Origin: Escherichia coli
GTDB taxonomy: Bacteria > Pseudomonadota > Gammaproteobacteria > Enterobacterales > Enterobacteriaceae
NCBI RefSeq assembly: GCF_003334385.1
Contig: NZ_QOWN01000161.1
Direction: 5' to 3' (one strand)
DNA length: 598 bases
The notes beneath the pieces were generated by a model. It did no database searches, was not told the DNA's origin, and saw only the letters and a list, made by a program, of their open reading frames with translations. Shown piece after piece: positions 1 through 598 of the stretch. Numbering within the stretch: the stretch's first letter is position 1; every line of letters begins with the position of its first letter. The translations under genes and the position numbers were made by a program.

Positions 1-132
1 ATGTCAGACAAACTCATAACGCCGGCAAAGGTCCTGTGTGTGATTGTCGGTATTTCATTTTCACTAATGCTGGTTGCTCTTTTTCTGTCCCTCGCCTGGG
101 TGATGTTGTCTTCGTCGGGGCTGCTGGGGTGA
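1..132 (+). CDS. Small hydrophobic single-helix membrane peptide (43 aa if the ATG at 1 is the true start); function unknown; may be the 3' end of a longer gene that starts upstream of the window
   Basis: Frame 1 is open from 1 to the TGA at 130..132. Translation: MSDKLITPAKVLCVIVGISFSLMLVALFLSLAWVMLSSSGLLG. A short polar N-terminus is followed by about 26 uninterrupted hydrophobic residues. T falls at codon position 2 in this frame, as expected for a membrane helix, whereas the overlapping frame-3 reading gives a non-membrane-like CDCRYFIFTNAGCSF. Its stop overlaps the next candidate start (GTGA at 129..132). Absent from the ORF track, presumably for length. Confidence 0.4.
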   Translation: MSDKLITPAKVLCVIVGISFSLMLVALFLSLAWVMLSSSGLLG

Positions 133-251
133 CAGTGACTGATGACATCAGCAGAGCGCTGGCTTTTGCTATTAAGTGGGTGGCTGTTGGTATTGCTGTG
201 TCTCCGATGCTGTATGGGCTGGCAAAACTGGTCATTGCGCTGAAATCGTGA
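129..251 (+). CDS. Small membrane peptide (about 40 aa), paralogue of the downstream 263..349 micro-ORF; function unknown
   Basis: Frame 3. Translation from GTG 129: (M)TVTDDISRALAFAIKWVAVGIAVSPMLYGLAKLVIALKS, ending at TGA 249..251. The start is uncertain: GTG 129 (overlapping the upstream stop as GTGA) or GTG 135. The ORF track extends this frame back to GTG 36, but that extension overlaps the better frame-1 membrane helix. The core RALAFAIKWVAVGIAV aligns with [16 protein letters not shown] in the next ORF, with mostly synonymous or conservative codon differences. Confidence 0.5.
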   Translation: MTVTDDISRALAFAIKWVAVGIAVSPMLYGLAKLVIALKS

Positions 252-262
252 ACTTTAAAAAG

Positions 263-349
263 ATGAGTGCTGAACTTATTCGGGCAATGGCATTTGCCAT
301 TCGTATTGTGGCCATTGCTGTTCTGGTCTGGGCAATTCGTTGGTGGTGA
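263..349 (+). CDS. Micro-ORF encoding a 28-aa hydrophobic peptide, paralogue of 129..251; function unknown
   Basis: Frame 2, ATG 263 to TGA 347..349. Translation: [28 protein letters not shown]. One predicted helix with Arg residues and a C-terminal aromatic RWW. Protein-level similarity to 129..251 with silent nucleotide divergence. Its stop is 1 nt before the Rz ATG (TGA-T-ATG). Weakness: the sequence just upstream of the ATG is A-rich (AAAAAG) with no clear GGAGG-type Shine-Dalgarno. Confidence 0.45.
341..345 (+). promoter_or_regulatory. Shine-Dalgarno-like ribosome-binding site for Rz
   Basis: GGTGG at 341..345, followed by a 5-nt spacer (TGATA) and the ATG at 351. It lies inside the 3' end of the upstream micro-ORF, consistent with translational coupling. 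Confidence 0.5.
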
Positions 350-350
350 T

Positions 351-598
351 ATGAACCGTGTTCTGTGTGTGGTGATTATTGTCATGCTGGTAGCCTGTGG
401 TGTGCTTAGTCTGGGGCTGAATCATTACCGTGATAACGCCATAACCTACAAAGAGCAGCGCGATAAAAAAGTCAGTGAGCTGGAGCAGGCAAATGCAACC
501 ATTACTGATATGCAGCAGCGCCAGCGTGATGTTGCTGCACTTGATGCCAGATACTCGAGGGAATTAGCCGATGCGAGAGCTGAAAATGAAACTCTGCG
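351..598 (+). CDS. Rz: Rz-type i-spanin (inner-membrane spanin subunit), lambda Rz family; 5' portion only, truncated by the window's 3' edge
   Basis: ATG at 351 opens a frame that stays open to the window end. Translation: [82 protein letters not shown]. This is an N-terminal hydrophobic signal-anchor followed by a charged, Q/A/R/D-rich helical region. From memory of lambda Rz (..[44 protein letters not shown]..), the [11 protein letters not shown] and [10 protein letters not shown] blocks are near-identical. A Shine-Dalgarno-like GGTGG sits at 341..345, 5 nt before the ATG. Confidence 0.9.
557..560 (+). promoter_or_regulatory. Putative ribosome-binding site for the embedded Rz1 start
   Basis: GAGG at 557..560, about 10 nt upstream of the +1-frame ATG at 571, inside the Rz coding sequence. 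Confidence 0.35.
571..598 (+). CDS. Rz1: Rz1-type o-spanin (outer-membrane lipoprotein spanin subunit); only the first 9 codons are in the window, embedded in the +1 frame of Rz
   Basis: ATG at 571 is in the +1 frame relative to Rz and lies 220 nt into Rz, which matches my recollection of where lambda Rz1 begins inside Rz. Translation is MRELKMKLC..., compared with recalled lambda Rz1 MLKLKMMLC.... A second in-frame ATG at 586 is an alternative start. GAGG at 557..560 is a plausible ribosome-binding site. The lipobox and mature protein are beyond the window. Confidence 0.6.

Follow-up and report, generated by a model that had tools for sequence, protein, structure and literature searches.

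Two small open reading frames (ORFs) encoding similar peptides lie side by side in a prophage of Escherichia coli, and the question they raise is how they came to be neighbors and whether they work as a pair. The stretch of DNA concerned, called the window here, is 598 nucleotides (nt) long and comes from contig NZ_QOWN01000161.1. It is 100% identical to a stretch in a prophage of E. coli strain 2018-166 and in phage PhiR5_1, and lies in the gap between the endolysin gene R and the spanin gene Rz, in the lysis cassette of an Stx-type lambdoid prophage. ORF2 (129..251, plus strand) runs from a GTG at 129 to a TGA at 251 and encodes 40 amino acids (aa). ORF3 (263..349, plus strand) runs from an ATG at 263 to a TGA at 349 and encodes 28 aa. 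A preliminary description took them for two genuinely translated and selected genes from an old tandem duplication, whose products could associate into a hetero-oligomer or serve as effector and modulator. The analysis reported here leads to another answer: they are probably a recombinational mosaic of two shortened members of a family of lysis-cassette membrane micro-proteins, ORF2 being a 5′-truncated member of the type called A and ORF3 a short member of type B.

ORF2 and ORF3 are true homologues, diverged members of one family, because their alignment is significant and they match the same PHROG profiles. Nine of 20 aligned residues are identical, and conservative swaps occur among the others, as first described. 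The local score of 47 (BLOSUM62) corresponds to z = 5.9 in 5,000 shuffles and was reached by 18 of 100,000 composition-preserving shuffles. The synonymous codon pairs that had been pointed out (AGA/CGG, GCG/GCA, GCT/GCA, GCT/GCC and GTG/GTC) are all present. In the aligned DNA, 34 of 60 nt are identical (57%), the differences fall 8/6/12 over the three codon positions, the non-synonymous divergence (dN) is 0.47, and the synonymous divergence (dS) of 1.6 is saturated. A local nucleotide alignment of the two is not significant (p = 0.16). The protein has thus been conserved while the DNA diverged, and on this point the preliminary description was right. ORF2 matches phrog_1115 (6.4e-25), phrog_4493 (5e-17) and phrog_3246 (2.4e-20), and ORF3 matches the same three at 0.053, 3.8e-6 and 9.2e-5; against the family alignment ORF3 has an hhalign probability of 97.8%. 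The similarity includes a motif of invariant alignment columns at the start of the transmembrane helix, R-A-x-A-F-A-I-K/R-x-V-A in ORF2 (153..185, plus strand) and R-A-x-A-F-A-I-R-x-V-A in ORF3 (281..313, plus strand).

The origin of the pair is another matter. Both ORFs match only the C-terminal, transmembrane part of the PHROG profiles. When set against the full-length architecture, they align to its C-terminal part and lack the N-terminal 22–28 residues. Window positions 135–252 are 93–97% identical to the 3′ two-thirds of full-length A genes, and the match starts exactly at the codons for VTDD. ORF2 accordingly aligns with positions 30–67 of the 67 in phrog_1115, keeping the transmembrane helix without the N-terminal MEKYKRILLRLTMKNGLELKAP domain. 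Positions 290–349 are 94–97% identical to the 3′ end (60 nt) of full-length B genes, the likeness beginning inside the AFAI codons of the motif, at 290, and positions 290–420 are 94% identical to a B-type 3′ end together with Rz. The intervening positions 253–289, which include the start of ORF3 (MSAELIRAM), match neither A nor B full-length genes. Full-length A and B are single genes in the same endolysin-spanin gap of other prophages; of 5,426 complete E. coli genomes, 1,043 have full-length A, 670 have full-length B and 581 have the tandem form. Since ORF2 and ORF3 are each near-identical to part of a single-copy gene and share 57% of their aligned nucleotides with each other, their divergence predates their juxtaposition, which is at odds with an old tandem duplication.

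Viral loci were collected in three sets: 80 anchored on Rz, 80 on the family motif and 105 contigs on the junction of ORF2 with the preceding ORF1. With FA and FB for full-length A and B, and O1 for ORF1, the commonest architecture of the gap is FA-O1-Rz; FB-Rz and O7-Rz also occur, O7 being a 72-aa ORF of phrog_6632. Locus L098 has FA, a short B form and Rz, and loci L149 and L166 have FA-O1-truncated A-short B-Rz. The window type is O0-O1-truncated A-short B-Rz, where O0 is a further small ORF. In the L040 type the reading frame continues from the VTVTDD codons that follow O1 into the short form (VTVTDDDNLFKQMSTEFIRAT...), and L006 has O0-O1-Rz and no family member. Chimeric proteins are also found: P0109 and P0110 have an A N-terminus and a B helix, joined at RAxAFAI, and P0128 has the short-form N-terminus and an A helix. 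Chimeras joined at RAxAFAI and VTDD argue for recombination and not for duplication in place.

The tandem block itself is young. Nucleotide diversity across ORF1–ORF2 is 0.004–0.007, compared to 0.08–0.15 in the flanking Rz of the same loci, which indicates a young module that has spread horizontally. A search with the tandem (window 100–360) gave 573 records in which the best match was at least 99% identical. The A/B divergence (dS about 0.9–1.6) is thus old and the juxtaposition young, brought about, as far as can be read from the sequences, by modular recombination between alternative variants and not by an old duplication in place.

Constant co-presence of the two ORFs, proposed as a check on the preliminary description, is not seen. 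A alone, B alone, A with short B, and short B without A all occur, and the pairing is non-obligate. Interruption of either frame in otherwise conserved loci had been named as evidence against two selected genes, and here the result is divided. In the 105 viral contigs with the O1/VTVTDD junction, ORF2 is intact in 93 and ORF3 in 91, both frames being intact in 91; two contigs have ORF2 with a replaced ORF3, and six are of the fused L040 type. Six contigs, however, carry a GTG>GTA change and a 1-nt deletion that shifts the frame of ORF2, and have lost ORF3, while ORF1 and Rz are kept.

The family to which these fragments belong is catalogued in PHROGs as 1115, 4493 and 3246, all annotated as of unknown function, and the full-length A form spans the profiles end to end. 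Full-length members have 50–63 aa. A basic helix (KYKRILLRL) at the N-terminus is joined by a short acidic linker to a single transmembrane helix at the C-terminus. The A-type example has 60 aa, MEKYKRILLRLTMKNGLELKAPVTDDISRALAFAIKWVAVGIAVSPMLYGLAKLVIALKS; the B-type example has 50 aa, beginning with M or V; and the C type (57 aa) comprises intermediate forms from loci with different holin, endolysin and spanin families, whose close protein relatives are named in the databases as Klebsiella and Salmonella. The net charge on the N-terminal side is +4. An AlphaFold model from the family alignment has a helix at 3–13, a loop, and a long helix at 22–55, with a mean predicted local distance difference test (pLDDT) of 74, rising to about 90 in the long helix. 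The number of hydrophobic segments is likewise one. The Shine-Dalgarno duplexes of full-length A, B and C have free energies (dG) of −8.4, −13.1 and −13.2, against a background median of −3.2.

A profile search among 1.84 billion representatives gave 276 clusters at 90% identity and only 32 at 50% identity, so that the family is narrow. Wherever a source is named for these clusters it is Escherichia, Salmonella or Klebsiella, with the exception of a single partial entry under Pseudomonas aeruginosa. There was no family match in Pfam even at E ≤ 10, none above threshold in NCBIfam (one match fell below it), no relative among solved structures in the PDB below E = 1.5, and no match to the holin families of PHROG, Pfam or NCBIfam.

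This is a real protein-coding family under purifying selection. Pairwise comparison of 31 distinct full-length DNA sequences gives a median dN/dS of 0.26. The pooled ratio of non-synonymous to synonymous polymorphism (pN/pS) is 0.42–0.44 in frame, compared to 1.1 and 2.8–5.1 in the shifted frames, and variable sites fall 27/17/44 over the codon positions. Within types dN/dS is 0.13–0.25, and it is still 0.13–0.15 at high divergence, between the E. coli A type and L095 (dS 0.79) and between the C types of L088 and L094 (dS 1.42). Both halves of the full-length genes are constrained, with pN/pS of 0.40 for the N-terminal half and 0.45 for the transmembrane half. Selection at the protein level, which the preliminary description had attributed to the two ORFs, therefore holds for the family. 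On the minus strand a 123-aa antisense ORF (window 14–385) spans ORF1 to ORF3; because its wobble positions coincide with those of ORF2, its dN/dS of 0.35 resembles that of a coding frame. It was rejected as a gene because stops occur in divergent members and the sense frame keeps a strong Shine-Dalgarno sequence and start codon; it is probably an artefact of hydrophobic codon usage.

The position of the family is conserved. In 70 of the 80 family-anchored loci the gene lies no more than 700 nt downstream of a recognized endolysin and no more than 600 nt upstream of an Rz-like gene. After inspection of the remaining loci, about 78 of the 80 have it between an endolysin and a spanin or small lipoprotein. 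Most of these remaining loci either pair endolysin phrog_181 with spanin phrog_312 or have lipoprotein phrog_7528 after endolysin phrog_465 or phrog_315. The cassettes of L088 and L094 have holin phrog_126, endolysin phrog_873 and spanin phrog_214; altogether the contexts span five endolysin and three spanin families. The stop codon of B-type and C-type genes is 2–5 nt from the start of the spanin, and the terminal RWW-stop codons of family genes often form the ribosome-binding site of the spanin. A 60-aa Cys-rich lipoprotein, phrog_7528, annotated as of unknown function, replaces Rz/Rz1 after the family gene in L096 (2831–3016), L109 (about 2686–2868) and L117 (2946–3221), and might be an alternative gene for disruption of the outer membrane.

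These findings suggest the following course of events. Different sequence types (A, B and C) occupy the endolysin-spanin gap in different phages. Modular recombination at short common sequences (VTDD, RAxAFAI) would then have brought together two shortened genes, an A-type gene reduced to its 3′ two-thirds, which follows the unrelated ORF1, and the short B-type form, which directly precedes Rz; each retains the transmembrane helix only. The full-length protein is predicted to be anchored in the inner membrane with its basic N-terminus in the cytoplasm, to be made together with the i-spanin, and to act on a membrane-embedded lysis protein, either holin or spanin. Going only by position, it is quite possible that full-length members serve lysis in this way as accessory proteins that the phage can do without, and we hold this view tentatively.

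How the short copies would be made, if they are translated at all, is suggested by the overlaps between the frames. The GTG of ORF2 at 129 overlaps the stop codon of ORF1 as GTGA, and an in-frame GTG at 248, which would extend ORF3 to 33 aa, overlaps the stop codon of ORF2 in the same way. The Shine-Dalgarno dG for ORF2 is −5.0 for the start at 129 and −6.0 for a start at 135, which gives 38 aa; the ATG of ORF3 at 263 has no Shine-Dalgarno sequence (dG +0.3). The two peptides may be produced by termination-reinitiation at the GTGA overlaps and may be helix-only derivatives with reduced or altered function. This is proposed with lower confidence, and it is about as likely that one or both are inert remnants. 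Start calls for ORF2 disagree: RefSeq has CTG 96 (51 aa, WP_042004856.1), the GenBank record of PhiR5_1 has GTG 135 (38 aa), and a mechanical list has GTG 36 (71 aa).

Several observations weigh against the proposal of a mosaic of shortened copies from a lysis-associated family. The ORF3 short form, which recurs in at least four contexts, may be an independent gene that is being maintained: in three of its variants, which differ by 14–18%, the ATG and the reading frame are preserved, and dN/dS is 0.16–0.27 in frame against 0.7–2.0 out of frame. In the first nine codons of these variants, however, the four changes are all non-synonymous, and most of the synonymous signal falls in the helix common to full-length B genes. 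Within the tandem type the single-nucleotide polymorphisms, few for a test of selection, number three synonymous and one non-synonymous in ORF2 and two of each in ORF3. The only indel seen within the tandem type is a 3-nt in-frame insertion in ORF3 of L008 (MSAELILRAM...), which is from the same contig as L215. With regard to lysis, the family genes of L117 lie between a structural gene with an immunoglobulin (Ig) domain and a minor tail gene, not in a lysis cassette. About one-fourth of the loci with nearly the same Rz have no family member and carry the O7 ORF alone, so that any lysis role is non-essential, and the position next to the spanin may reflect only a permissive insertion site. A literature search by accession numbers, peptide strings and topic found no paper on these ORFs or on the family.

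The alternative that survives best is that one or both of the ORFs are gene fragments without function, debris left by recombination in a hypervariable gap; they would persist only because of the youth of the block and because the ribosome-binding site of Rz falls in the 3′ end of ORF3. The absence from both of the N-terminal domain, which is constrained in the full-length genes, would be explained in this way, as would the weak GTG start of ORF2, the lack of a Shine-Dalgarno sequence for ORF3, the very low diversity, and the broken or deleted variant in 6 of the 105 contigs. The gap also holds other short forms, such as O0, a short form of O7, and unrelated inserted genes. Debris would not be expected, however, to have an N-terminus (MS-A/T-E/D-L/F-IRA) that recurs with A-type and B-type helices in at least four contexts with its ATG kept, or short-form dN/dS values as low as those given above, much of whose signal comes from the part common to full-length B, or an indel that leaves the frame intact. 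We regard debris as a possible but somewhat doubtful explanation.

It has also to be asked whether the family, including the window copies, is moron-type cargo with no role in lysis, such as a peptide made in the lysogen for superinfection exclusion or as a membrane toxin. Gaps like that between R and Rz are known hot spots for insertion, and related loci have a KilAC antirepressor and a methyltransferase-like gene there; phages with nearly the same Rz can do without the family, and one locus lies outside the lysis cassette. Against this, no sigma-70-like plus-strand promoter was predicted from the holin gene to beyond Rz, so that expression of the family from the late operon is most likely. 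The genes are also tightly packed and stop-start coupled within that operon, and the place beside the spanin is kept across the five endolysin and three spanin families. When ORF1, ORF3 and full-length A, B and C were compared with the PADLOC models, none matched a known anti-phage defence protein. Cargo without a lysis role is thus unlikely.

The original proposal, that ORF2 and ORF3 are an anciently duplicated, co-selected and translated pair forming a hetero-oligomer or an effector and modulator, draws on real protein similarity with saturated silent sites, both frames being intact in 91 of 105 junction contigs, a complete transmembrane helix in each peptide, GTGA overlaps that could couple their translation and a coding-type substitution pattern in the short-form variants, but it is most improbable given that each ORF is near-identical to part of a single-copy full-length gene elsewhere, that the pairing is non-obligate, that the intactness of a tandem block with so little variation (573 records at 99% or more, diversity 0.004) tells little about selection, that ORF2 is broken and ORF3 lost in six contigs, that ORF3 has no Shine-Dalgarno sequence, and that ORF1, not ORF3, is the steadier partner of the A type.

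ORF1 (1..132, plus strand), also called O1, encodes a 43-aa single-helix membrane peptide that matches phrog_4906 (E = 4.5e-21) and has a Shine-Dalgarno dG of −7.7. The order FA-O1-Rz was found in 58 of the 80 family-anchored loci, and if there is a functional pair, full-length A and ORF1 are a better candidate for it than ORF2 and ORF3. Compared with FA-O1-Rz the window has an inverted order, ORF1 preceding the truncated A copy. ORF1 was considered as a third paralogue and rejected, its similarity to ORF2 and ORF3 being not significant (shuffle p 0.05–0.08). Derivation of ORF1 from the transmembrane segment of Rz was likewise rejected: the protein z is 3.05, but the nucleotide alignment falls elsewhere and is marginal (p = 0.048).

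In the records of strain 2018-166 and PhiR5_1 the late lysis cassette consists, in order, of a class II holin, the lysozyme R, an inserted KilAC antirepressor, three small ORFs labelled hypothetical, and Rz. The antirepressor is unrelated cargo in the endolysin-spanin gap of the window’s own prophage (L001 4211–4906). A 255-aa ORF between the short B form and Rz in L040 (1716–2483) is methyltransferase-like, as judged by eye only. Rz, which encodes the cassette’s i-spanin, is present with its 5′ part (351..598, plus strand) and is annotated as lysis protein or endopeptidase Rz; the Rz of L095, a relative, matches phrog_13, ‘Rz-like spanin’. The o-spanin gene Rz1 begins at 571..598 (plus strand) in the +1 frame inside Rz, with MRELKMKLC... 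The whole Rz1 (L001 5571–5756), with its lipobox further on, is unannotated in the RefSeq and GenBank records examined. An Rfam scan of the region found nothing, and a terminator scan gave only weak 5-bp hairpins. A homologue in E. coli K-12 was rejected, the Qin prophage having no gap between rrrQ and rzpQ.

The Trp-Trp-stop codons that end ORF3 (TGGTGGTGA, 341..349, plus strand) can also be read in the sequence as a Shine-Dalgarno-like site for Rz, the duplex formed by these terminal codons having a dG of −6.2. This suggests a dual constraint on the RWW/TGGTGGTGA tail, as the tail of a protein and as the ribosome-binding site of the spanin. The RWW tail of ORF3 is shared by distant family members and by O7, an unrelated ORF. 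O7 was rejected as a member of the family, with an hhalign probability of 1% and only the IRWW tail aligned. Its short form O0 is a small membrane ORF just upstream of the window (L001 4861–4998; ...MKMIKMDWKFLLVWLIPFLWVVAQLITAIKG). With O0 and ORF1–ORF3 the cassette carries four consecutive single-helix micro-ORFs from three families.

Lysis by phages of Gram-negative bacteria is canonically the work of holin, endolysin and spanin, and extra players, such as the releasin of phage Mu, have been found only recently. In phage lambda (S105/S107) and phage 21 (S68/S71) one gene gives both holin and antiholin, closely related forms with different N-termini and opposed activities and with two to three transmembrane domains. 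The present family resembles them in consisting of small inner-membrane proteins of the same late lysis operon, and they offer a conceptual precedent for long and short forms. It differs in having one predicted helix, separate genes and no match to holin families, and upstream in the window’s cassette there is a class II holin gene already. The family could be an unrecognized accessory single-helix lysis protein that tunes the spanin or holin, and the short forms in the window could be natural modulators of it, for example dominant-negative or ‘anti’ forms comparable to antiholins; we consider this speculative and hardly probable.

Mosaic exchange of gene modules is an established property of lambdoid phages. 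The present locus is like other lambdoid mosaics in the alternative genes that occupy one gap, the breakpoints at short common sequences, and the low-diversity block within diverse flanks. It differs in that the breakpoints lie inside a gene of 50–60 codons, at a conserved motif, and produce chimeric or truncated micro-ORFs and not whole-gene swaps. The peptides of the family are also distinct from i-spanins and o-spanins. They have 28–60 aa, with no periplasmic domain and no lipobox, and the real Rz and Rz1 lie directly downstream. Together with the holin/antiholin pairs, the closest functional precedent is gp25 of phage Mu, the ‘releasin’ (DUF2730), a small, membrane-tethered and mostly cytoplasmic accessory lysis protein encoded near the spanin genes that was long unannotated (PMC9239132). 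In releasin the transmembrane domain is N-terminal and the cytoplasmic domain comes after it; its Pfam family is DUF2730 (PMC9239132). The order in the present family is the opposite, a basic N-terminal helix and then the C-terminal transmembrane helix; it has no Pfam match, and it occurs also with endolysins that are not of the signal-anchor-release (SAR) type.

If the short copies are inert, this locus is an ordinary lambdoid mosaic, and its interest is modest, lying mainly in the conserved position of the family beside spanin genes. It holds a lesson for annotation as well: recombination inside a gene of 50–60 codons yields chains of truncated, open micro-ORFs that resemble tandem paralogues, and for such chains the start calls of RefSeq and GenBank differ. 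Each of the forms, full-length A, full-length B and tandem, is present in roughly 10–20% of complete E. coli genomes. A gene for a small membrane protein is held directly upstream of the spanin across at least five endolysin and three spanin families, which makes it a candidate for a further accessory factor in lysis.

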